A stretch of 54,204 nucleotides of DNA from an uncultured Ignavibacteriales bacterium. GTDB taxonomy: Bacteria; Zixibacteria; MSB-5A5; GN15; JAAZOE01. The first letter of the stretch is position 1, and every line of letters starts with the position of its first letter. The stretch is from the NCBI GenBank assembly GCA_964611355.1, contig CAZSYD010000014.1, forward strand, positions 1 to 54,204. Direction: 5' to 3'. The notes under the pieces were generated by a model, which saw only the letters and a list, made by a program, of their open reading frames with translations, was not told the DNA's origin and did no database searches. Positions 1 through 18,724 of the stretch are shown piece by piece. The position numbers were made by a program, and so were the translations under genes.

Positions 1-1216
1 TGAGAGCCAAAAGGTTGGTCTGGTCGGCAATGTCGTCAATAACCCCGATAATCTCACCGATTTTGTCAGAGGCTTGTGCCAACTCGCCGACGATTTTACC
101 GGAATCCTTGGCCGATTCGGCAATCTTGACCATGCCGTCTATGGTTTCGCCGACTATCTTCTGACCATCGCCGGATGTACTGGAAGCGTTTTCCGAAGCC
201 TCTTTAGCCTCGCCAGCGTTCTTGGCGGACTCGATGATCGTGGCTGTCATCTCTTCTACGGCGCTGGAGACCTGGGCCGCCTGGTCTGTCTGGCTCTTGG
301 CGCCGGTGGCCATTTCCTCCGAGGCCGAGGATATTTCATTGGCTGCCGAAACCAGCTCATTAGCGTTGCCGCGCAGTTGTTGGACAACAATATCAAGGTT
401 TTCCACCATCTTCTTGAAAGATCTACCCAGAACGTCCGTCTCAGACTTAGGCTCTACCTCAACGGTCAGGTCGTTGGCAGCTATTCGATCTGCTGCATCG
501 GCCATGCCCTTCAGGTAGTCTATCAGCTTGTGGAATGCTGATGCGAGTACTCCGATTTCATCCCGGGAAGTAATCTCCACCGACTTATTGACATCACCAA
601 CAGCCACTCCTTCAGCAACATCGACCAAGAGAGTAATCGGTCTTGTTATCTTTGTTGCATAAATGAAAATAACCACGGCTGCCAAGACAAGAATTATAAC
701 TCCAGCTACAGTGCTATACTTAATTATTTCCGAACGAGGTTTCGCCAGAAAATCGTCTTCAAATGCACCTGCCACTATTATCCAGTTCCACTCTTCAAGA
801 TATCTAAATGCAGCCAGCTTATACGTCTTAGTCTCAGGTGAAAGATACCTCAAGGTCCCATCTTTTCTTTCCAAGATTTCCTTTATGTGTGGTTTGTTTC
901 TCCAATTCTCGCCCTCGGCTTTCTTATGGATTAACAAGTTCCCTTCGGGATCAACCACGAAAATAAACCCTGTTTTCCCTACTGTTATCTGCTCGTTACA
1001 CATTTTTCTTATCACGGCCCATTCCATATCCGGATTCGCTTCCGCAAAAATATAGAACTCATCTACCATGGATTTCAGATCTGCAATCGCACTTTCTCTT
1101 AATGGAGTTATCATGCTTCGAATAGTTGAAAAACCTGTTCCCACTATTGCAACCAGCACTGTAGAGAGAAACACTAAAAGCAGTTTGCTTCTCAAACCCA
1201 TTCCTTTCTTGAACAT
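1..1216 (-). CDS. Methyl-accepting chemotaxis protein (TM-Cache-TM-HAMP-HAMP-signalling), 3' end runs off the window
   Basis: Not in the ORF track because there is no stop in the window. Manual translation from ATG 1216 (AAGGAG RBS at 1225-1230) gives MFKKGMGLRSKLLLVFLSTVLVAIVGTG..., a Cache-like GKTGFIFVVDPEGNLLIH, and ends in the MCP hairpin signature KIGEIIGVIDDIADQTNLLAL at the window edge. Confidence 0.93.
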   Translation of the reverse strand, partial: MFKKGMGLRSKLLLVFLSTVLVAIVGTGFSTIRSMITPLRESAIADLKSMVDEFYIFAEANPDMEWAVIRKMCNEQITVGKTGFIFVVDPEGNLLIHKKAEGENWRNKPHIKEILERKDGTLRYLSPETKTYKLAAFRYLEEWNWIIVAGAFEDDFLAKPRSEIIKYSTVAGVIILVLAAVVIFIYATKITRPITLLVDVAEGVAVGDVNKSVEITSRDEIGVLASAFHKLIDYLKGMADAADRIAANDLTVEVEPKSETDVLGRSFKKMVENLDIVVQQLRGNANELVSAANEISSASEEMATGAKSQTDQAAQVSSAVEEMTATIIESAKNAGEAKEASENASSTSGDGQKIVGETIDGMVKIAESAKDSGKIVGELAQASDKIGEIIGVIDDIADQTNLLAL

Positions 1217-1335
1217 TCTTTCATCTCCTTGTTTTGTATCCCTTTTTTTGAAGAGTCCGACCCTGGAGCGGCAGAAGCCAGGTCCTCCATGGCGGGACTT
1301 TCAAGGGTCACTTTGTTCATCACGAAACTTGGTGT

Positions 1336-2238
1336 TTAGTACGCAACGAGCCCGGCTTCTTTCCAGGCTATAAAGCCGCCTTTAATACGATGGACATCTT
1401 TGTATCCCATTTCCTGCAGTTGTTGTGCAACAAGGGCTGATCTGCTCCCTTTTTTACAGATAACAAGTAGCGTTTTATTGGCATCATGAACCTTTTTCTT
1501 AATATTGAACACGACCTTGCCGTGTTCCATTACCAAAGCCCCATCAATTGCACCCTGAGACTCTATTTCTTGTGCACTCCTGATATCGAGAAGGACGGCA
1601 TCTTTTGCACCCATCATTTGCTTTGCATCAGAAGGGCTTACTGCTTTGACTGCTCTATTGGCTTCAGCCACAAAATCGTCTGCTGATTTGCCGGCTGGCA
1701 TTTTACCTTTAGGTACTACTGGGGCTTCGGCTATTTTAGAATTCCCTGATTTTTCTACAGGCAATCCTTTTCTTATCCATCCCAGTATTCCACCGTCAAG
1801 CCACATAGCATTTTCATACCCAATCTGTTTCAGTTGATAAGCAACCAATGTTGATCTCTTACCCTTTTTACAGTAAACGATGATAGGAACATCATTGTTG
1901 GGAACTATCTTAGTAATATTGAATATTACAGTACCATGGGGCAAGACTGTTCTGCCTGGTATCCATCCATGCTCTTTGAACTCTGCAAAGGAGCGAATAT
2001 CCAGCAGAACAACATTATCAGTGCCATCCATAAGCTTTTTTGTCTCTTCCGGTGAAATGCCCTGAATATGTGCTTTGGCCTCATTAACGAAGTCTTCTGC
2101 TGTTTTACCTTTTGGTATCTCAATGGCAAACACAGAGGCTGAGAGTGCAAGAATGAGACTCACACTCAAGATCATAACCAGGACGATCCCGAAGTCGATA
2201 TACAACTTCTTCCCGATTTTCAGGTCTTTCCAACTCAT
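1336..2238 (-). CDS. Exported tandem-rhodanese sulfurtransferase (Sud-like), with an MCP-like N-terminal leader
   Basis: Two internal repeats (GKTAEDFVNEAK..LLDIRS..YCKKGKRS..LDGGILGW and GKSADDFVAEAN..LLDIRS..ICKKGSRS..IKGGFIAW), each with a rhodanese active-site Cys. Hydrophobic N-terminus ends in VFA. GGAGGAGG RBS. Confidence 0.88.
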   Translation of the reverse strand: MSWKDLKIGKKLYIDFGIVLVMILSVSLILALSASVFAIEIPKGKTAEDFVNEAKAHIQGISPEETKKLMDGTDNVVLLDIRSFAEFKEHGWIPGRTVLPHGTVIFNITKIVPNNDVPIIVYCKKGKRSTLVAYQLKQIGYENAMWLDGGILGWIRKGLPVEKSGNSKIAEAPVVPKGKMPAGKSADDFVAEANRAVKAVSPSDAKQMMGAKDAVLLDIRSAQEIESQGAIDGALVMEHGKVVFNIKKKVHDANKTLLVICKKGSRSALVAQQLQEMGYKDVHRIKGGFIAWKEAGLVAY

Positions 2239-2296
2239 GGTTTCTCCTCCTCCTTTAATAATTCTGTAGCTTGACGAAGTTATTTCCTGTTTGCTT

Positions 2297-2323
2297 TTAT
2301 CGTCCTCTATAAAACCGGCATGA
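2297..2323 (-). promoter_or_regulatory. Putative sigma28 (FliA)-type promoter for the rhodanese-MCP unit
   Basis: Minus strand TCATG-N14-GACGATAA, compared with the FliA consensus TAAAG/TCAAG-N14-GCCGATAA. It lies upstream of a chemotaxis gene. Confidence 0.5.
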
Positions 2324-2343
2324 GGGGAGAAGATGAGTGACTG

Positions 2344-2366
2344 AAGGAGTATCCGAAATACTCCTT
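2344..2366. promoter_or_regulatory. Perfect inverted repeat, candidate LuxR/NarL-type operator
   Basis: AAGGAGTAT-ccgaa-ATACTCCTT. Half-site TACTCCT fits the NarL-type heptamer TACYNMT. No U-tract, so a terminator is less likely. Confidence 0.45.
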
Positions 2367-2431
2367 ATTGGTATGCTCTCATTCCGCTGCGGGAAACCAA
2401 AACGAGGGCAGGCAGAGTATTAGACAGGCTT

Positions 2432-3394
2432 TTAACGGTTGACGGAACCTAACTGCCAAAGATAGGAACGCAGGTTGGTTTTTTCGTTGGTGATATTCAG
2501 CTTCTTCCGAATATTCTGCCTTTGTTTGCGAACCGTCTCAACTGAGATATTCAGTAAAGCCGCAATCTGCTTGGATGTCATGCCGTTTTTTACCATGTTG
2601 CAGATTTCCATCTCGCGCGGTGCAAGCCGGGCGCGATTTTTTTCCAGTTGATTGATAAATGGCGATGTTATATTGGACAGGCAGTTTTCCAGCAGAGAGA
2701 TATAATGTTTTCCGTCAGTGTCGGATCTTTCTCCAAGAATCTGGAGAATTGGGAAAACAATCTTTTCAATATTAGATTGAATTTGAAGGGCAATCTGTGT
2801 TTTTTCCCGGTCAATTTGATCGAGAACCTCTTTGAGCGCAATGTTCTTTTCATGCAGCGCCTTTTGTTCGATCTCCAGCCTGGTATTAGTATCTTTCAGG
2901 GTTTTTTCTGTTTGCCTACACTCGGTAACGTCGCGGCTTATCACCAGCGAAGAGATAGTTCCATCCGGATTCTTTATCGGAGTACCAACCAGTTCGTAAA
3001 TCCTGTCAGTCTCGGCGATATGGCATTCCCAGTGCACCGTCTTGCCGGCAAAAATGCCCCCGTTTCGGCAGTAACCGCATGGTTGATCCAGATGGTGGAA
3101 ATACTGATAACATTTGTCGCCTGTACTCGACGGAAAATCCTTGGACAGCGCGGGGTTGATATACTGAAGAGTATACTCGCTATCGATTATGTACGCTCCG
3201 TCTTCCATCGCCTCAAGCACATTTACGAGGCTATCTCTCAGGTGCTGTAACGCTTCCTCTGCCTTATGGCAGTCTTTAGCCGAAAAGACACCTTGTGCGA
3301 ACCCGGGCATATAGCTGTTAATATCCTGTTCAGACAGCCGAATAGCCTGCTCGGACTGCTTTTTAAGGCTCAGGCGTTTCGCTTTAGAAGTCAT
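2432..3394 (-). CDS. PAS-domain LuxR-family transcriptional regulator
   Basis: PAS-like segment with CYQYFHHLDQPCGYC, a coiled coil, then a C-terminal LuxR HTH (LAPREMEICNMVKNGMTSKQIAALLNISVETVRKQRQNIRKKL). Confidence 0.88.
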   Translation of the reverse strand: MTSKAKRLSLKKQSEQAIRLSEQDINSYMPGFAQGVFSAKDCHKAEEALQHLRDSLVNVLEAMEDGAYIIDSEYTLQYINPALSKDFPSSTGDKCYQYFHHLDQPCGYCRNGGIFAGKTVHWECHIAETDRIYELVGTPIKNPDGTISSLVISRDVTECRQTEKTLKDTNTRLEIEQKALHEKNIALKEVLDQIDREKTQIALQIQSNIEKIVFPILQILGERSDTDGKHYISLLENCLSNITSPFINQLEKNRARLAPREMEICNMVKNGMTSKQIAALLNISVETVRKQRQNIRKKLNITNEKTNLRSYLWQLGSVNR

Positions 3395-3439
3395 AACTAT
3401 CAGCCAACAGAAAAAGTATATTATAATCCGTTATGGCTT

Positions 3440-3466
3440 TTATCGGCAGAATTGAATAAGGTTTTC
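3440..3466 (-). promoter_or_regulatory. Putative sigma28 promoter of the PAS-LuxR gene
   Basis: Minus strand GAAA-N15-GCCGATAA, a perfect sigma28 -10 octamer about 45 nt upstream of the ATG. Confidence 0.6.
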
Positions 3467-3668
3467 AGGGCAACAGGAGAAATTGCGGCAATAAAATGAA
3501 AATCCGGATAACGAAAAGTCAGATTGTCAAGGCGTGCCGAAATTATGATTATCGTACAATTCCGCTATCGCATCAGGCGGTTCGACTGATATTAGAATGC
3601 GCCGCGTTTAGGACAGTTAAAAAGGAATTAAAATATTTTAGTAGTTTATGAATACCCGTAAATCGTAT

Positions 3669-5919
<2,251 letters not shown>

Positions 5920-10517: not shown

Positions 10518-11846
10518 ATGTTTGCCCGGCGGAAAGCGGCTCCCGCCGCAATCCTTTTTACCACCCTTACGCTTTTGGCGGTCAACATCGGCTGGTGGTG
10601 GTATTACAGGTCAATTACCACCTATCTGGAAGAACAGCTCTCGCAAAGGGTGACCGGCGTCGTAGCTGTGGCCGGCCTTTACATAACCGCCGACCAGGTG
10701 GAAAATCTTTTGATCGATGACCTCGACGTTTATGCCAATCTTCTGCTTTATCTTGATTCGCTGGTCATTATCGATTCCCTTTCCGAAGCGGCGGTTATTG
10801 ATCTCGATTTCAATTACCTGATATCGACCCGATCCGACCTGGTCGAGGGCGGGTATCTTCTGACCCGGCCTAACTTCGACTCGCTTCATCAAGCGGCGCT
10901 GGGACGACCGACGGCTTCCGCATTATACGACATTGACGGCACCTACCTGAAATCAGCTTACGCCCCGCTTTATAATTCCGACGGTGACGTCGCCGCGGTG
11001 CTTGTCGCCGAAGCCGGGGCGGGGTATTTCGACCTTCTCGACACCCTGCGCCGGAACCTCTTCTTTCTTGCAGGCGGATCCGCAGGGGCGGTTGTAATTC
11101 TACTAATTTTCTATATCATCTACAGCCGCCGCCTGGCGGCGGCCGAGGAAAAAATCTACCAAGCCGGTTCGCAGGCGGCTCTGGGCCGGATGGTCGCCGT
11201 AGTCAGCCACGAAATCAAAAACCCGCTAATGATCATTGCCGCCGCCGGAGAACGGCTCGAAAAGAAACACGCTGACCCGGAAGCGTCATTTATCACCGAG
11301 GAAGTTGCCCGGCTGGACAGCATCGTTTCCGGCTATCTTTCCTTTGCCAGAGGAGACAAAACCATCAATCCCGAAACGGTTGATCTGGCCACGCTCTGCG
11401 GCAAAATCATCGCCGAATTTAGACCGCAATTCGATCAGGAAAACGTTGAGCTTCAAACCAAAATAGACGATTCGCTGCCGCCGTTTGAAGCTGACCGAAT
11501 CGGCCTCCGCCAGGTATTGATTAACCTGTTGCTCAACGCCCTCCACGCCGTTACGGGAGAACAGAATAAAAGACGGGAGAAACTCGTATTGCTTGAGGTA
11601 CTAATATCAGATAAATTGCCGGACAAGGTAATCATACGCGTATGCGACAGCGGACCCGGAATAAAGCCCGCTCATCGCGAGCGGCTGTTTGAGCCTTTTT
11701 TTACAACCCGGATCAAAGGCTCGGGACTGGGTCTTTACCTGAGCCGACGCATAATCGAATCGCATAACGGAACCGTCAGGATTACCGATGATAAAGAGGG
11801 TATGACAATGTTCGAGGTTATCCTGCCGGCGGGAGAATCGGAATGA
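10518..11846 (+). CDS. Membrane sensor histidine kinase
   Basis: Two TM helices around a periplasmic domain. H-box SHEIKNPL, N-box QVLINLLLNA, DSGPGI, FEPFFTT, GSGLGL. Confidence 0.94.
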   Translation: MFARRKAAPAAILFTTLTLLAVNIGWWWYYRSITTYLEEQLSQRVTGVVAVAGLYITADQVENLLIDDLDVYANLLLYLDSLVIIDSLSEAAVIDLDFNYLISTRSDLVEGGYLLTRPNFDSLHQAALGRPTASALYDIDGTYLKSAYAPLYNSDGDVAAVLVAEAGAGYFDLLDTLRRNLFFLAGGSAGAVVILLIFYIIYSRRLAAAEEKIYQAGSQAALGRMVAVVSHEIKNPLMIIAAAGERLEKKHADPEASFITEEVARLDSIVSGYLSFARGDKTINPETVDLATLCGKIIAEFRPQFDQENVELQTKIDDSLPPFEADRIGLRQVLINLLLNALHAVTGEQNKRREKLVLLEVLISDKLPDKVIIRVCDSGPGIKPAHRERLFEPFFTTRIKGSGLGLYLSRRIIESHNGTVRITDDKEGMTMFEVILPAGESE

Positions 11847-13174
11847 GCAGGATTTTGATTGTCGATGACGAGCCGAAAATGACGATGATGATATCATCCA
11901 GCCTGGACGAGGCCGGATATACCACTGAAACGGCCGCCAGCGGCAAAAAGGCGATGGATAAGCTTTTGAAGACGGCTTATGATCTGGTCGTTACCGATAT
12001 CAGGTTGCCGGCCCCGGACGGACTGGAAATACTCGACTGGATTTCCAAAAACCGTCCCGAAACGATAGTCATCATGATAACCGCATTCGCCGAGGTTAAA
12101 ACGGCGGTGGAAGCTTTGCGCAAAGGCGCCGCCGACTACCTGATCAAGCCGTTTCCGCTCGAAGAGCTAACCCTGCAAATTAAAAGGCTCCTCAAGCAAC
12201 GCCACACCGAGCAGTTGAAAGAGTTACGCGAAAAAGACTATGACAATCTCGCCTATGATGAGTTTATCGGCATGTCGCCTGCAACCAGGGAATTTCTTGA
12301 TCTAACTGAAAAAGTTGCCGTCACCGACACAACCGTCCTGATTACAGGGGAATCAGGAAGCGGCAAAGAACTGGCTGCCCGGATGATCCACAACCTTTCC
12401 CCGCGAAAAAACAAACCGTTCATTGCGGTCAACTGCGCCGCACTGACCGAAACGCTTCTGGAATCGGAACTGTTCGGGCACGAAAAGGGCGCCTTTACCG
12501 GAGCAGTAGCGCGCAAGCCGGGACGGTTTGAACTTGCCGACGGCGGCAGCATTTTCCTCGACGAAATCGGAGAAATGTCGCCCGCTCTTCAGGCCAAGCT
12601 GCTGAGAGTTCTGGAAGAGCGCAAAATGGTCAGAGTAGGCGGAGTTGACGTTATCGATATTGATATTCGATTAATCACCGCTACAAACCGCAATCTGAAA
12701 GAGATGATCAAAGAACGTACCTTCAGGGAAGACTTGTATTTTCGAATAAATATATTCCCGATCGCTCTGCCGCCCCTGAGGGAACGGAGAGAGGATATCC
12801 CGCTTCTGACCCGTTATTTTCTCGAAAAGAAGAACTTCCCCCACCCGGAGCTTGATGGTGAAGTAATGGAATTATTGAAAAGCTATCATTGGCCCGGTAA
12901 TATCCGCGAACTGAAAAACATTCTTGATCGGGCTATAATCCTCTCGGGTGGCGAGCCTATTAACGCGGGGTGTGTCGGGATAGATGATGAGGATATGGAG
13001 GCATCGGAATTGCTTGGGATAACCGCCGGAAAATCGCTGGGCGAAGCCGAAAAACAGCAGATTCTGGATGCCCTGAAGCGGGCCGAAGGGAGCAAAACGG
13101 AAGCGGCACGGCTTCTGGGAATAACACGGCGCAGGCTCTATTCCCGGATGAAAATACACGGAATAAATCCATAG
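11843..13174 (+). CDS. Sigma54-dependent response regulator (NtrC/AtoC/ZraR family)
   Basis: Receiver domain, GESGSGKE, GAFTGA, FLDEIGE, WPGNIREL, Fis-type HTH. ATGA overlap with the kinase. Confidence 0.96.
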   Translation: MSRILIVDDEPKMTMMISSSLDEAGYTTETAASGKKAMDKLLKTAYDLVVTDIRLPAPDGLEILDWISKNRPETIVIMITAFAEVKTAVEALRKGAADYLIKPFPLEELTLQIKRLLKQRHTEQLKELREKDYDNLAYDEFIGMSPATREFLDLTEKVAVTDTTVLITGESGSGKELAARMIHNLSPRKNKPFIAVNCAALTETLLESELFGHEKGAFTGAVARKPGRFELADGGSIFLDEIGEMSPALQAKLLRVLEERKMVRVGGVDVIDIDIRLITATNRNLKEMIKERTFREDLYFRINIFPIALPPLRERREDIPLLTRYFLEKKNFPHPELDGEVMELLKSYHWPGNIRELKNILDRAIILSGGEPINAGCVGIDDEDMEASELLGITAGKSLGEAEKQQILDALKRAEGSKTEAARLLGITRRRLYSRMKIHGINP

Positions 13175-16066: not shown

Positions 16067-18724
16067 ATGAAGCATAACAAGCTACTTACATTATCATTGC
16101 TGGTCTCGTTTCTGATTCTGGCTTCGGCTTCTTTTGCTCAGGATTCGTTCACTTACGGTACTGTCAGTTCTCGTCCGTATCCCGCCGGTGCAACCGTCGA
16201 GGTTCCGGTTTATATCAATAACACCGTTGCTGTAGCGGCCTTTGACGCGGTCGGCACGACCGGGACCGACGGCAACGTTGAAATCGCGGTAGCCGGTATA
16301 GTCTTCGACAACGACATGGCCGATCTGAATGTCCTTAATGACCGTTTTGGCATTCAGGATCTTGGCAGCGGCAAGTACCGTTTTGGCGCCGTTAAGACTG
16401 ACGCCGTGGACGGTCTGGATCTGCCGGTGGGTAATGGTCAGGTTGCCACGCTGACGTTTACGTTTGTTTCAGGCTGTAAGCTGGGCACGGCAACCATTGA
16501 ACCGACCGACGGCGAGTGGAACGGCCATCCGGTTGTTAACAATATGGTCGCTTCAACAGGCGATCCGATTGATCCTCTGGACATCGTCAATGGCGCTGTA
16601 AATGTCATCGATGAGGCTCCGTTCATCACCAACTGCCCGACTGAACCCTTCGTGGTCTACTGGAACAGTGATCCTCAAAATGTGGTGTATCCCATAGAAG
16701 CCGACGACTATGACCTGCCTTGCGGCTGCGACGTGTTGAACTATAATCTTCTGGACGGCCCGGGAGATCTCGCGGGTAATATCTATTCGTGGAATCCCAC
16801 CGGCCCGGACGTTGGTTGTCATCATGTCATAGTCGAAGTTGTGGATCGTTACATGCTTGCAGTTACCTGCGAGTTTGACATCGAAGTCCTGAACAAGCCG
16901 CCGGTGATCACCTGCCCAGAATATGCCGAGGGCGAAATTGCTTTCCATGTTCTGATGGGTGATCTTATCACGGAGACGGTTACGGCCATCGATCCTGACG
17001 CCGGTCCTCTGGGCATGACCTACTCGCTCGGCACAGCCACAACAGCAGGCGGCTCAATTGGCGCGACCAGCGGCATATACGAGTGGAATGTTCCTGACGA
17101 TCCCTCTTATATCGGCGATTACCTAGTCGAAGCAATCGTTACGGACGGGGCCAATCTCGATCCGTGCAATAAAGAGAATGCCGACACCTGTTACTTCACG
17201 ATCACCGTCATGCCTTCGTACCGTGTTTCCATCGAGTACAAGACTGACGATGGCAAGGGTGCGGGTGTCACTCAGGGTCATTATCATGACCTCTCCATTA
17301 CTCTTGACGATGCTTACACCGTCATGGAGATGGGTGGTTATGATTTCCTGATCTCCTATGAGCATTCCCTTGGCGCCCTGACCTTCATGAGCGCCGCGAT
17401 GGGTGACCTTCTGGTTGACGGTGAGTGGGAATATTTCACTTACCGCTTCGGACCTTTCGGTAATTGCGGCAGCGCCTGTCCGTCAGGTTTGGTTCGTCTG
17501 AATGCCATGGCCGAGACAAACAACGGCAGCCACGTGGCCACCAATTTTGACAATTCGCACGGCTTCAATGAGCTGGCGGTTATGACATTCTATGTCTCAA
17601 ATGACCGCACTTATAACTGCTCATATGCGCCGGTCGAGTGGTTCTGGATTGATTGTGGCGATAACACCATCTCCTCCAAGTATGGTGATACCCTCTTCAT
17701 CGAGAGGGAAATCTATACTTACGAGGGCGATCCGGTGGGTGACCCGCCGAGCGGCTATGACCTTCTGCCCGGTTACTGGGGTGTTGGCGACGATTGTCTC
17801 TTGGGAACAGACAAAGGCTACCCGATTCGTGGAATCGACTTCACGAACGGCGGGTTCCTGATCATCTGTTCCGACAGTATCGATGCCATTGGTGATATTA
17901 ACATCAACGGCATTCGGTACGAGGTCGCCGATGCGGTCATGTACACGAACTACTTCATCGAAGGCCTGTCCGCCTTTTATGGTCATGTCGAGGCCTCGAT
18001 TGCGGCTTCTGATGTGAATGCCGACGGTATTACCCTGTCCGTGTCTGACCTGGTTTACCTGGTCCGCGTGGTTGTTGGTGACGCTCTGCCATACGCCAAG
18101 CTGACTCCCGGGGTTGACAACATCAATGTTGCCACCCAGTTGGTCGGCAGCGATATGGCCGTGACGTACGACGCCAGCACCGATATCGGCGCCATGCTGA
18201 TGATCTATAAGATCGACGGCACTATTGGCGAGCCGACTCTCGGCAGCGGCGCGGCAGACATGAATATCGTTTACGGGATTGCAGGCAATGAACTTCGTGT
18301 CCTGATCTACAATATTGGAAAGAACGCCATTCTGGGCGGCCGCCACGACCTGGTTAACATCCCGGTTGATGGTTCGCTCGAGCTCAAGAGTGTGGAGGTG
18401 GCTGACTACTTTGGTAATGCCATGGAAGCCTCCGTTCGTGTTCTGCCCACTACGTTTGATCTGGCACAGAACTATCCTAACCCGTTCAACCCCACCACCA
18501 CTATTGAGTTGTCTCTGCCGGTAGCATCCGACTACAATGTCGTGATCTACAATATTGCAGGTCAGCTCATCCGGACCTACAACGGTTCGGCCGAGGCTGG
18601 TGTGGTCGAGGTCGTGTGGGATGGTAGGGACGCTTCCGGTAACCAAGTGGCTTCCGGTATGTACTTCTACAAAGGTACCGCCAGTCACTTCTCGGCTACC
18701 AAGAAGATGATCCTTATGAAGTAA
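16067..18724 (+). CDS. Large secreted surface protein: cohesin-like and Ig-like domains, dockerin-like EF-hand pair, C-terminal FlgD-Ig/T9SS-like domain
   Basis: Signal peptide. GATVEVPVYI cohesin-like start. GDININGI..VADAV and SDVNADGITLSVSDLVYL dockerin-like loops. C-terminal LAQNYPNPFNPTT..WDG..VASGMYFY..KKMILMK. Confidence 0.85.
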   Translation: MKHNKLLTLSLLVSFLILASASFAQDSFTYGTVSSRPYPAGATVEVPVYINNTVAVAAFDAVGTTGTDGNVEIAVAGIVFDNDMADLNVLNDRFGIQDLGSGKYRFGAVKTDAVDGLDLPVGNGQVATLTFTFVSGCKLGTATIEPTDGEWNGHPVVNNMVASTGDPIDPLDIVNGAVNVIDEAPFITNCPTEPFVVYWNSDPQNVVYPIEADDYDLPCGCDVLNYNLLDGPGDLAGNIYSWNPTGPDVGCHHVIVEVVDRYMLAVTCEFDIEVLNKPPVITCPEYAEGEIAFHVLMGDLITETVTAIDPDAGPLGMTYSLGTATTAGGSIGATSGIYEWNVPDDPSYIGDYLVEAIVTDGANLDPCNKENADTCYFTITVMPSYRVSIEYKTDDGKGAGVTQGHYHDLSITLDDAYTVMEMGGYDFLISYEHSLGALTFMSAAMGDLLVDGEWEYFTYRFGPFGNCGSACPSGLVRLNAMAETNNGSHVATNFDNSHGFNELAVMTFYVSNDRTYNCSYAPVEWFWIDCGDNTISSKYGDTLFIEREIYTYEGDPVGDPPSGYDLLPGYWGVGDDCLLGTDKGYPIRGIDFTNGGFLIICSDSIDAIGDININGIRYEVADAVMYTNYFIEGLSAFYGHVEASIAASDVNADGITLSVSDLVYLVRVVVGDALPYAKLTPGVDNINVATQLVGSDMAVTYDASTDIGAMLMIYKIDGTIGEPTLGSGAADMNIVYGIAGNELRVLIYNIGKNAILGGRHDLVNIPVDGSLELKSVEVADYFGNAMEASVRVLPTTFDLAQNYPNPFNPTTTIELSLPVASDYNVVIYNIAGQLIRTYNGSAEAGVVEVVWDGRDASGNQVASGMYFYKGTASHFSATKKMILMK

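Follow-up and report, generated by a model that had tools for sequence, protein, structure and literature searches.

A tandem rhodanese, probably exported, and a chemoreceptor with an sCache_2 sensor are encoded side by side in the contig analyzed here, and partner and receptor are in conserved genetic association across several bacterial phyla. We analyzed a 54,204-nucleotide stretch (the window) from the genome of an uncultured member of the Zixibacteria. We give an even chance to the reading that the rhodanese is an accessory linking periplasmic sulfane-sulfur chemistry, namely that of thiosulfate or polysulfide, to the sCache_2 receptor, the two genes forming a conserved module. Sulfur gradients guide the movement of bacteria in sulfidic sediments. 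Our literature search found no description of a chemoreceptor for thiosulfate or polysulfide, nor of a rhodanese-receptor pair, in agreement with the initial annotation of this DNA, which knew of no such system. The host genome encodes flagellins, one CheA and only two methyl-accepting chemotaxis proteins (MCPs), and with so few chemoreceptor genes the stimulus of this MCP would be central to the organism's navigation.

The rhodanese open reading frame (Table 1) matches PF00581 in two stretches (118.7 bits; cut-off 22.2), which places it in the family, and each domain singly also scores above the cut-off in a genome-wide Pfam scan. Both catalytic cysteines are intact and the two repeats start as the initial annotation had described. 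In rhodaneses of the sulfurtransferase type, the cysteine opens a six-residue C-X4-R loop, whereas the Cdc25/Acr2 phosphatases have a seven-residue C-X5-R loop. The loops CKKGKR(S) and CKKGSR(S) satisfy the six-residue rule and, judging by sequence, this strongly basic CKKG-x-RS loop is of the type found in thiosulfate and polysulfide sulfurtransferases. Domain 2 is the conserved catalytic domain, with Cys261, Gly264 and Arg266 unchanged in 43/43 homologues. Cys123 of domain 1 is present in 37 of the 43 aligned homologues; the other six have A, S or G there. About 58 clusters of homologues share at least 42% identity with the rhodanese. In one clade, a four-domain protein of 565 amino acids consists of two fused copies and is still encoded ahead of the sensor gene. 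Each of the four genomes checked has a single copy of the window-type rhodanese, beside an MCP.

Export had also been proposed in the initial annotation, and inspection of the N-termini by eye is consistent with it. Orthologues begin MNKLTTTLTKRSL and their signal ends in VFA followed by IE, a typical Sec signal. A signal-like N-terminus is present in the window rhodanese and in six fully read orthologues, L008 having the variant YAFDLE; in remoter family members the signal ends in SVSA followed by IE or in LFA followed by QVE. The rhodanese is thus a putative Sec-exported, periplasmic protein. Its first ~21 residues (MSWKDLKIGKKLYIDFGIVLV) are those with which members of a Zixibacterial MCP family normally begin, here a graft on the signal peptide of the rhodanese; MSWKDLKIAKKLYIGFG opens 15 MCP genes. 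The genome's second MCP (on C97) was ruled out as the source of the graft, since it starts MKFNLKL.

Table 1. Features of the rhodanese-chemoreceptor locus, in window coordinates
Feature	Positions	Strand	Basis
MCP gene truncated by contig start, coding for residues 1-405 of 560	2-1216	-	ORF, Pfam
HAMP, residues 187-236	509-658	-	Pfam, E 5.1e-16
Periplasmic sCache_2 sensor, residues 31-170, flanked by two predicted membrane helices	707-1126	-	Pfam, AlphaFold, Foldseek
Rhodanese-MCP spacer, 119 nt	1217-1335	-	No terminator-like site on this strand
Tandem rhodanese, 300 aa, predicted to be exported	1336-2238	-	ORF; Pfam Rhodanese twice, E 1.7e-34
Rhodanese domain 2, loop CKKGSRS, Cys261 = codon 1456-1458	1354-1638	-	Pfam
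Rhodanese domain 1, loop CKKGKRS, Cys123 = codon 1870-1872	1771-2055	-	Pfam
Putative N-terminal export signal, residues 1-38, likely cleavage after SVFA	2125-2238	-	Judged by eye
Rhodanese upstream intergenic region, with perfect 9+9 palindrome (2344-2366) and -10-like GACGATAA (2297-2304)	2239-2431	-	
PAS-LuxR (GerE HTH) regulator, directly upstream of rhodanese	2432-3394	-	Pfam PAS_4, GerE

The receptor gene runs off the start of the contig. The C-terminal half lies on another contig of the assembly (G000:C67), joined by a 55-nt exact overlap, and an identical full-length copy (P0090 and L036) has 560 amino acids. Matches of P0090 to MCPsignal (181 bits), HAMP (56.6 bits) and the Cache families, together with membrane helices judged by eye, identify it as an MCP. 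The Cache-HAMP architecture that had been read from the DNA holds for the window copy as well: Cache_3-Cache_2/sCache_2 covers residues 75-158, ahead of HAMP, and MCPsignal begins at residue 339. The sensor scores 34.8 bits for sCache_2 (cut-off 25) and 63.2 bits for Cache_3-Cache_2 (cut-off 27.7). The cytoplasmic part of the receptor occurs in two architectures, with and without HAMP, that are 14 residues per arm apart; HAMP is missing from the orthologues in L007-L009.

A search of the sensor profile against solved structures by sequence gave nothing significant (best E 0.054), so the fold was searched instead. The best Foldseek matches of the AlphaFold model (pLDDT 84) were the single-Cache chemoreceptor domains 2qhk/4exo, TlpB, Adeh_3718 (4k08) and 5g4y. 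These single-Cache domains bind pyruvate, urea, acetate or propionate directly, and match the model with TM scores of 0.5-0.75. When the sensor was mapped by hand onto the PscD residues named in PMC5062169, His97, Tyr124 and Lys133 corresponded to PscD His103, Tyr143 and Lys156, and Phe84, Phe86 and Ser126 occupied the positions of Tyr90 and the sandwiching Trp pair. The sensor therefore seems to retain a His/Tyr/Lys anion pocket, much of the PscD-type triad, and from its modeled fold looks able to bind a small ligand unaided.

The pairing of the two genes extends well beyond the window. An orthologous sensor lies directly downstream on the same strand in 6/6 close rhodanese homologues from reference genomes (65-87% identity), so the neighborhood search proposed with the initial annotation found the homologues next to MCPs throughout, and a further genome (G244) has the same arrangement. 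Among 285 genomes of the phylum, the rhodanese occurs in five and the sensor in the same five, on the same contigs, an identical pattern of presence and absence. Together with the adjacency in all six homologues, this pattern supports a functional link. In a sample of 401 genomes of a second phylum, both genes occur together in G287 only, and the one extra weak match for each query falls in a different genome. The pair could have moved as one piece of DNA, in which case its co-occurrence across phyla is not independent evidence. Two candidate family members were rejected: L082 (G645) is an ordinary double-Cache receptor, and L075 (G313) is a 44%-identical rhodanese fragment with a stop. Within the families, which comprise ~58 rhodanese and 66 sensor clusters, identity falls to 42% for the rhodanese and 52% for the sensor, and the flanks differ between loci (LuxR, porin, CheA/CheW, other MCPs, argG/argH and hydrogenase-like genes) while the pair stays. 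All rhodanese family members with a visible neighborhood, a set that excludes the subclade P0049-P0053 in which the domain-1 cysteine is lost, lie directly upstream of the sensor family. In a tree of 33 sensors, intact rhodaneses occur in every major clade, which indicates that the pairing is ancestral.

The main alternative interpretation is linkage without shared function. The MCP would directly bind a common small ligand in its sCache_2 pocket, in all likelihood a short carboxylate or some other small anion, the rhodanese would be a periplasmic sulfurtransferase in its own right, handling or detoxifying sulfane sulfur where the surroundings are sulfidic, and their adjacency would result from co-inheritance and co-transfer alone. 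We regard this as possible but somewhat improbable. Four remoter rhodaneses (27-37% identity) have no MCP nearby, and the phylum has other exported multi-rhodanese proteins encoded away from MCPs, such as the triple-rhodanese lipoprotein in L034; both observations fit linkage alone. Nevertheless, an independently useful enzyme should at least sometimes occur in other contexts, and each family rhodanese with a visible neighborhood precedes a family sensor. The identical distribution over 285 genomes and the persistence of the pair while its flanks and the receptor's output module were swapped likewise argue for more than linkage.

Further observations on the side of linkage alone come from metagenomes. 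Thirty-one loci were reached through the sensor, and 27 of these were informative; L066-L073 were left out of the counts because their matches are confined to sensor residues 23-74, with 34-47% identity. The rhodanese is intact in 12/27 loci, two of which belong to the window's own organism. It is broken in three (a stop interrupts L038 at the signal-peptide junction, and the 5' end is missing from L051/L052), reduced to a remnant of ~50-85 amino acids between cheW and the MCP in five, and absent in seven. The receptor frame is open in all 15 loci with a broken, remnant or missing rhodanese, and the losses are spread over the sensor tree, which indicates that the receptor can do without a rhodanese next to it. 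The rhodanese, although ancestral, is dispensable. That the receptor outlives its neighbor is expected under linkage alone, as are the small-ligand fold with its seemingly retained triad and the spacers of 92-251 nt found in most loci. The functional partnership put forward in the initial annotation is supported as a link by the pairing, but the 15/27 losses and the small-ligand fold weaken the case for an obligate one. In our preferred reading, with the rhodanese as an accessory, the repeated losses are explained by a receptor that has a working small-ligand pocket and is functional alone.

Under this accessory reading, the Sec-exported rhodanese would acquire periplasmic sulfane sulfur, with thiosulfate or polysulfide as the donor, and make this chemistry visible to the chemoreceptor encoded downstream. 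The receptor would then signal to the flagellar motor by way of CheA, of which the cell has one. We infer the sulfur substrate, the rhodanese-receptor contact and the behavioral output of this scheme. If the link is real, we lean towards contact, with the rhodanese either docking on the Cache domain or handing sulfur to it. Also given a real link, we find it plausible, though not quite probable, that the rhodanese interconverts sulfur species and that a small oxyanion, thiosulfate or sulfite for example, binds the His/Tyr/Lys pocket of the receptor. A more specific proposal is that the chemoreceptor senses how far its dedicated rhodanese is loaded with sulfur, the signal being a protein persulfide and not a free ligand. 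We consider this doubtful, and for the docking of a persulfide-loaded rhodanese on the Cache domain, as originally suggested, we found nothing in support. A complex prediction for the putative mature rhodanese (residues 39-300) with Cache residues 33-163, based on alignments of 43 rows for the rhodanese and 51 for the Cache domain, gave scores of 0.12 and 0.02 compared to a mark of 0.32, and is evidence neither for nor against contact.

A covalent route could also be envisaged, in which the rhodanese adds or removes sulfane sulfur at Cys73 of the sensor, persulfidation being either the signal or damage in need of repair. Cys73 is the sole cysteine of the periplasmic domain, lies beside an invariant Asn, and is present in 50/51 sensor family members. 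It is absent from L065, which is the most divergent sensor and also lacks a rhodanese, and the catalytic Cys261 of the rhodanese is invariant, all in favor of such a relay or maintenance function. However, loci from which the rhodanese is gone keep Cys73 just as well, and in more remotely related sensors the position is taken by Phe, Leu or Ile, a buried-core pattern that suggests a buried residue rather than a reactive thiol. By our own reading of the model, Cys73 lies in helix 2 and probably outside the elements that form the PscD pocket. We therefore judge a covalent role for Cys73 very unlikely. The motif ANPDM(D/E)W...C is specific to the sensor family and is missing in remoter relatives.

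Co-transcription of the rhodanese and the MCP is possible. The shared strand, the short gap and the absence of a terminator-like site within it uphold part of the earlier description of a single minus-strand unit, but a single transcript is unsupported, and no RNA run is listed among the sequencing runs that contain window positions 300-2500. Across other loci the spacer measures 12-251 nt (12 nt in L053 and L064), and the 92-251 nt seen in most of them leaves room for separate promoters. The fold of the 119-nt spacer has a z-score of -1.7, with 16/200 shuffles folding equally well, and Rfam has no match across window positions 1-3700, spacer included.

The sigma28-like promoter reported earlier upstream of the rhodanese is rejected here as unsupported. 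The octamer GACGATAA matches the sigma-28 -10 consensus GCCGATAA at 7/8 positions, but TAAA is absent at the -35 position. GGACGAT[AT] occurs 295 times genome-wide, and the full pattern TAAA-N14-16-G[CA]CGATA[AT] has 18 matches in the genome, none of them upstream of the rhodanese. A likeness between the rhodanese and flagellin upstream regions (TA-A-AGGACGAT) was also discarded, because it involves two sequences only and the octamer is common. A sigma-70 scan found no promoter-like site at threshold within 2239-2431, and neither spacer contains GG-N10-GC, inspected by eye for a sigma-54 promoter. The PAS-LuxR protein encoded upstream may regulate the pair; its paralogues precede the genome's other MCP gene and MCP genes in relatives, and it is not a conserved member of the module. 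The two LuxR-MCP spacers share the 11-mer ATTTCGGATAC, which has seven copies in the genome, the other five in coding-like sequence.

What the host encodes elsewhere bears on the possible role of the rhodanese. The genome, which is 96% complete, has no match for NrfD/PsrC or DsrA, making it unlikely that the rhodanese feeds a polysulfide reductase in the manner of Sud; one molybdopterin oxidoreductase is encoded elsewhere. In L006, L033 and L064, and partly in L005, the gene immediately upstream of the rhodanese encodes an anion-selective Porin_O_P; the host genome has no homologue of this porin at E 1e-4. Beyond a run that may be the source sample, five salt-marsh metagenome runs contain 54-80% of sampled words, although all date from 2019 and may represent one campaign.

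The pair is a concrete candidate for cloning, with a soluble enzyme of 260 residues and a sensor domain of 135. A real link would make the rhodanese a new type of chemoreceptor accessory, a covalent sulfur carrier, and would offer a way into sulfur sensing among uncultured Zixibacteria and their neighbors. Should the receptor indeed read a persulfide, taxis to polysulfide or thiosulfate would gain its first described receptor, and a chemoreceptor would for the first time have an enzyme as its co-sensor instead of a solute-binding protein. If the link is not real, the two genes have stayed adjacent across phyla despite repeated decay of one member, a caution for guilt-by-association annotation.

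The best solved relative of the rhodanese is 6mxv (E 9.6e-29), a tandem "rhodanese-like family protein" for which the searchable portion of the literature yielded one naming paper, a docking benchmark. Both 6mxv units align to both window domains and each is preceded by the same helix, but the 6mxv loops are CGGGFRS and CGSGFRS compared to CKKG-x-RS in the window protein. The resemblance to Sud of Wolinella succinogenes noted in the initial annotation is genuine but distant: Sud (1qxn) ranks fourth among solved relatives, behind the tandem 6mxv, and aligns to domain 2 only (E 1.6e-11). Sud is a homodimer that serves polysulfide reductase (PsrABC). The two proteins share the rhodanese fold and a single catalytic cysteine in a basic loop, CKTAARA in Sud and CKKGSRS here, and the signal peptide suggests that the window protein would also resemble Sud in being periplasmic. 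Sud has one domain, whereas the window protein has two and that of one clade four, and the window gene goes together with a chemoreceptor and not with a reductase, in a host without an NrfD/PsrC match.

Several receptors sense their ligands through a periplasmic partner, including Tar with maltose-binding protein, Helicobacter pylori TlpB with AibA/AibB, and Pseudomonas aeruginosa CtpL with PstS. Similarly, a separately encoded periplasmic protein would here add a signal to a direct-binding receptor. The window sensor has TlpB among its closest structural matches, and the receptor would go on working if its partner were lost, in line with the pattern of decay. In contrast, the known partners are solute-binding proteins that close on their ligand and are usually encoded with transporters, whereas the candidate partner here is an enzyme that would hold its ligand covalently on a cysteine and is encoded directly upstream of the receptor gene. 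The sCache_2 carboxylate receptors (PscD, McpP, Adeh_3718 and the Vibrio parahaemolyticus MCP 2qhk/4exo) have the same fold and fall in the same Pfam families as the window sensor, but share only 13-17% sequence identity with it. A related gene order is found in Deferribacter desulfuricans, where, according to PMC2885270, an anion-selective Porin_O_P and a rhodanese lipoprotein are encoded beside the psr genes as a proposed polysulfide route into the periplasm. The same order of porin and rhodanese occurs in L006, L033 and L064, but the client in the D. desulfuricans system (PMC2885270) is polysulfide reductase, whereas here it would be a chemoreceptor.

The comparative evidence, drawn from sequence, gives solid support to a link between the tandem rhodanese and the chemoreceptor (MCP) encoded after it, and clear evidence that this link is not obligatory. 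With the rhodanese as query, a search across genomes, one for each species, gave 25 loci. In all six loci with close homologues (65-87% identity) the orthologous Cache receptor gene lies directly downstream on the same strand; the four with distant rhodaneses (27-37% identity) contain no MCP, and the remaining 15 are MCP genes matched only through a grafted N-terminus. When all 285 genomes of the phylum were searched, the rhodanese was present in five, including the window's genome, and in none of the 13 other genomes of the organism's own family. The sensor, that is, the periplasmic sCache_2 domain of the receptor, was found in exactly these five genomes and on the same contigs. The conserved rhodanese-MCP neighbourhoods that the initial annotation had proposed to look for were thereby found. 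In a sample of 401 genomes from a second phylum (that of locus L009), both genes occur together in a single genome, G287, and each query has one extra weak match, in different genomes. The rhodanese is single-copy in the four genomes checked. Genomes with the pair are labelled Zixibacteria, Thermodesulfobacteriota and Planctomycetota, with Omnitrophota added from protein records; this patchy, rare distribution is consistent with the two genes having been transferred together. In database searches both families are small and of similar size, the rhodanese with ~58 clusters at no less than 42% identity, below which nothing appears until 28%, and the sensor with 66 clusters at 57% or more; the 6 to 8 representatives at 50% clustering separate clearly from a second tier of relatives. 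No family rhodanese was found away from the sensor in the neighbourhoods viewed from the rhodanese side, namely those of the six reference loci plus one further genome.

Searching metagenomes with an alignment of six sensor sequences returned 39 loci, of which eight (L066-L073) were left out because their match, at 34-47% identity, is confined to residues 23-74. The receptor reading frame is open in all 31 retained loci. Upstream of it the rhodanese is intact in 12 (two from the window's own organism and four, L059, L060, L061 and L063, with a four-domain form), broken in three (L038, where a stop codon falls at the junction with the signal peptide; L051 and L052, with stops and no 5' end), reduced to a remnant of ~50-85 aa between a cheW gene and the MCP gene in five, and absent from seven; in two loci it is cut by the contig edge, and in two the upstream sequence is too short to say. 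Decay beside the intact receptor is thus graded, from a premature stop through loss of the 5' end to a 3' remnant (L040, L041, L042, L046 and L047). Because a tree of 33 sensors has intact rhodaneses in every major clade and scattered losses, with at least 3-4 changes forced by well-supported branches, the pairing is ancestral, and repeated losses of the rhodanese have left the receptor in place. One interpretation of these losses, and of the intact small-ligand fold of the sensor, is that the two genes are linked without a shared function; against this stand the conserved, exclusive and ancestral pairing and the invariant catalytic loop, and we hold this interpretation to be possible, if somewhat doubtful.

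The genes flanking the pair vary by locus and include LuxR, an anion-selective Porin_O_P porin, CheA/CheW, other MCPs, argG/argH and hydrogenase-like genes. The periplasmic part of the receptor is 59-88% identical among seven orthologues, yet comparison of the window's receptor with L007-L009 places one sensor domain on two cytoplasmic modules. In one form HAMP is present and the signalling domain is longer; in the other (L007-L009) there is no HAMP, each arm is 14 residues shorter, and L007 and L009 have a C-terminal tail ending DFKDF or DFGEF. The difference points to a domain swap immediately behind the second membrane helix; what is conserved as a unit is therefore the rhodanese together with the sensor domain, not with the entire receptor. 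In one clade the rhodanese is doubled into a single 565-aa, predicted exported protein with four rhodanese domains, located between argG and argH with the sensor still directly downstream. In three loci (L006, L064 and L033) a Porin_O_P gene lies immediately upstream of the rhodanese, and in eight other Zixibacterial loci (L014, L015, L016, L020, L022, L025, L027 and L028) one lies immediately upstream of an MCP gene of the MSWKDL type; pairing of porins with chemoreceptors may be a recurrent feature of the phylum. No Porin_O_P homologue was found in the window's genome at E 1e-4.

In domain 2 of the rhodanese Cys261, Gly264 and Arg266 are invariant (43/43), and the domain-1 Cys is kept in 37 of 43 proteins and replaced in six, with an accompanying Gly-to-Asp loop change; because of this pattern, domain 2 is the predicted catalytic domain. 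The subclade without the domain-1 Cys (P0046, P0049, P0050, P0051, P0053 and P0040) has AQKDKRS, SKKDKKS or CGQKDKRS as its loop and keeps the domain-2 site; its gene neighbourhood was viewed in L009. We take the basic six-residue loop to be of the thiosulfate/polysulfide sulfurtransferase type. The predicted sensor model (pLDDT 84) matches single-Cache chemoreceptor domains (2qhk/4exo, TlpB, 4k08 and 5g4y; TM 0.5-0.75, 13-17% identity) that bind pyruvate, urea, acetate or propionate. Mapped by hand onto the PscD pocket as given in an excerpt of PMC5062169, sensor His97, Tyr124 and Lys133 correspond to His103, Tyr143 and Lys156, whereas Tyr90 and two Trp are replaced. Since the His, Tyr and Lys are kept in this mapping, the pocket looks fit for a small oxyanion. 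Cys73, the single periplasmic Cys of the sensor, is kept in 50 of 51 sensors, and the rhodanese could serve it as a sulfur relay or repair factor. This is very improbable, because the position is Phe, Leu or Ile in more distant relatives and the Cys is kept also in loci without the rhodanese.

At the locus itself, the initial annotation was largely right apart from its promoter. The rhodanese has two domains with both catalytic loops as quoted, CKKGKRS (Cys123) and CKKGSRS (Cys261), and the downstream receptor has a single Cache domain (residues 75-158, sCache_2 and Cache_3-Cache_2 over cut-off), HAMP (187-236) and the start of the MCP signalling domain by Pfam. A full-length identical receptor copy on a metagenome contig (P0090, L036) has 560 aa. 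The genome (2.57 Mb, 96% complete), in which the window makes up the first 54,204 bases of contig C14, encodes flagellins and a single CheA; its MCP genes number only two, and both break within the conserved signalling domain at contig ends (start of C14, end of C97, start of C67). C67 has the C-terminal half common to both MCP genes and overlaps C14 by 55 exact nt. The breaks look like assembly collapse of a repeat, so the C14-C67 join is probable rather than certain. Among sequencing runs, no RNA run was found to contain the locus; apart from a possible source sample, 54-80% of the sampled words occur in five metagenome runs from salt marsh, all from 2019 and maybe one campaign. No sulfur-metabolism genes were seen among the scanned ORFs at 3.6-19 kb of the window.

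Coordinates of features in the window and in related loci
Feature	Location	Strand	Description
gyrB	3669-5645	-	
PAS-LuxR regulator	2432-3394	-	
Palindrome	2344-2366		perfect 9+9, between LuxR gene and rhodanese
Unsupported sigma28-like promoter	2297-2304		-10-like octamer
Rhodanese	1336-2238	-	300 aa; two Pfam Rhodanese stretches, E 1.7e-34
MCP-type 5' end	2176-2238	-	~21 codons opening the rhodanese gene
Chemoreceptor (MCP)	2-1216	-	405 aa, off contig start
Receptor part compared with L007-L009	2-696	-	
Histidine kinase + sigma-54-dependent response regulator pair; large protein with type-IX-secretion C-terminal sorting domain	10518-13174 and 16067-18724	+	
Broken rhodanese	L038 2980-3870		
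Broken rhodanese	L051/L052 3012-3902		
Porin_O_P gene	L006 3594-4814		
Porin_O_P gene	L064 12-1205		
Porin_O_P gene	L033 2015-3007		
Four-domain rhodanese	L059 2192-3889		
Nearest paralogue	L034 288-1514		genome G104

The rhodanese is predicted, from our own reading of its sequence, to be exported. Six orthologues have an ordinary Sec signal at the start, MNKLTTTLTKRSL...VFA/IE, and begin MNKLTT. The window rhodanese differs at its extreme start, where ~21 residues, MSWKDLKIGKKLYIDFGIVLV, are the N-terminus typical of a large MCP family in Zixibacteria (MSWKDLKIAKKLYIGFG at the start of 15 loci), fused in frame to the hydrophobic core and VFA/IE site of the rhodanese signal. It seems that the rhodanese gene acquired the 5' end of an MCP gene formerly located after the LuxR gene, probably along with its promoter. 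The sigma28-like promoter did not hold up: the -10-like GACGATAA is not preceded by TAAA at -35, the genome contains the octamer GGACGAT[AT] 295 times, and none of the 18 genome matches to the full sigma-28 pattern is at this locus. A sigma-70 promoter and terminator scan found nothing on the minus strand in the spacers upstream of the rhodanese or between rhodanese and MCP; the latter, of 119 nt, has no unusual structure (z -1.7), and Rfam gave no match at the locus. The rhodanese-MCP gap is 12 nt in L053 and L064 and 92-251 nt in the remaining loci, and co-transcription is possible. The palindrome (AAGGAGTAT-5 nt-ATACTCCTT) has a core 11-mer, ATTTCGGATAC, that recurs just after the LuxR paralogue preceding the genome's second MCP (C97 near 1185); five of its seven genome occurrences, those outside the two LuxR-MCP sites, resemble coding sequence. 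The palindrome may serve as a LuxR operator, form a hairpin of the terminator type or be left over from a duplication.

The resemblance to Sud noted in the initial annotation stands for domain 2 only. Among solved structures the best match is 6mxv (a tandem rhodanese, E 9.6e-29), then 1yt8, 2hhg and Sud (1qxn, E 1.6e-11, loop CKTAARA). The nearest paralogue, a lipoprotein of 408 aa, has three rhodanese domains (CKKGSRA, CKTGGRA and CKKGGRA), is ~40% identical and does not adjoin an MCP. One molybdopterin oxidoreductase lies elsewhere in the genome, and a Sud-like role feeding a polysulfide reductase appears unlikely here because NrfD/PsrC and DsrA have no match in this 96% complete genome. That the rhodanese works for the receptor is suggested by a pairing that is conserved, exclusive and ancestral, and also by its invariable active-site loop, by the anion porin seen at some loci and by the missing respiratory client. 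We give an even chance to its being an accessory that links sulfane-sulfur chemistry to the receptor, either through rhodanese-receptor contact or through conversion of a ligand. Since the rhodanese has been lost repeatedly and the small-ligand fold is intact, the receptor probably senses something by itself, and the rhodanese would therefore be at most an add-on. As a hypothesis, the proposed sulfur taxis with a persulfide-loaded rhodanese as receptor partner is reasonable. A full-text literature search found no paper linking a rhodanese to a bacterial chemoreceptor and no description of a thiosulfate or polysulfide chemoreceptor; in the excerpts of PMC3543383, PMC2885270 and PMC9938260, the two terms stand in unrelated sections of each paper. 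In its excerpt, PMC2885270 proposes a porin and a rhodanese lipoprotein, beside psr genes, as a polysulfide route, and this porin-rhodanese order is paralleled by relatives of the window pair.
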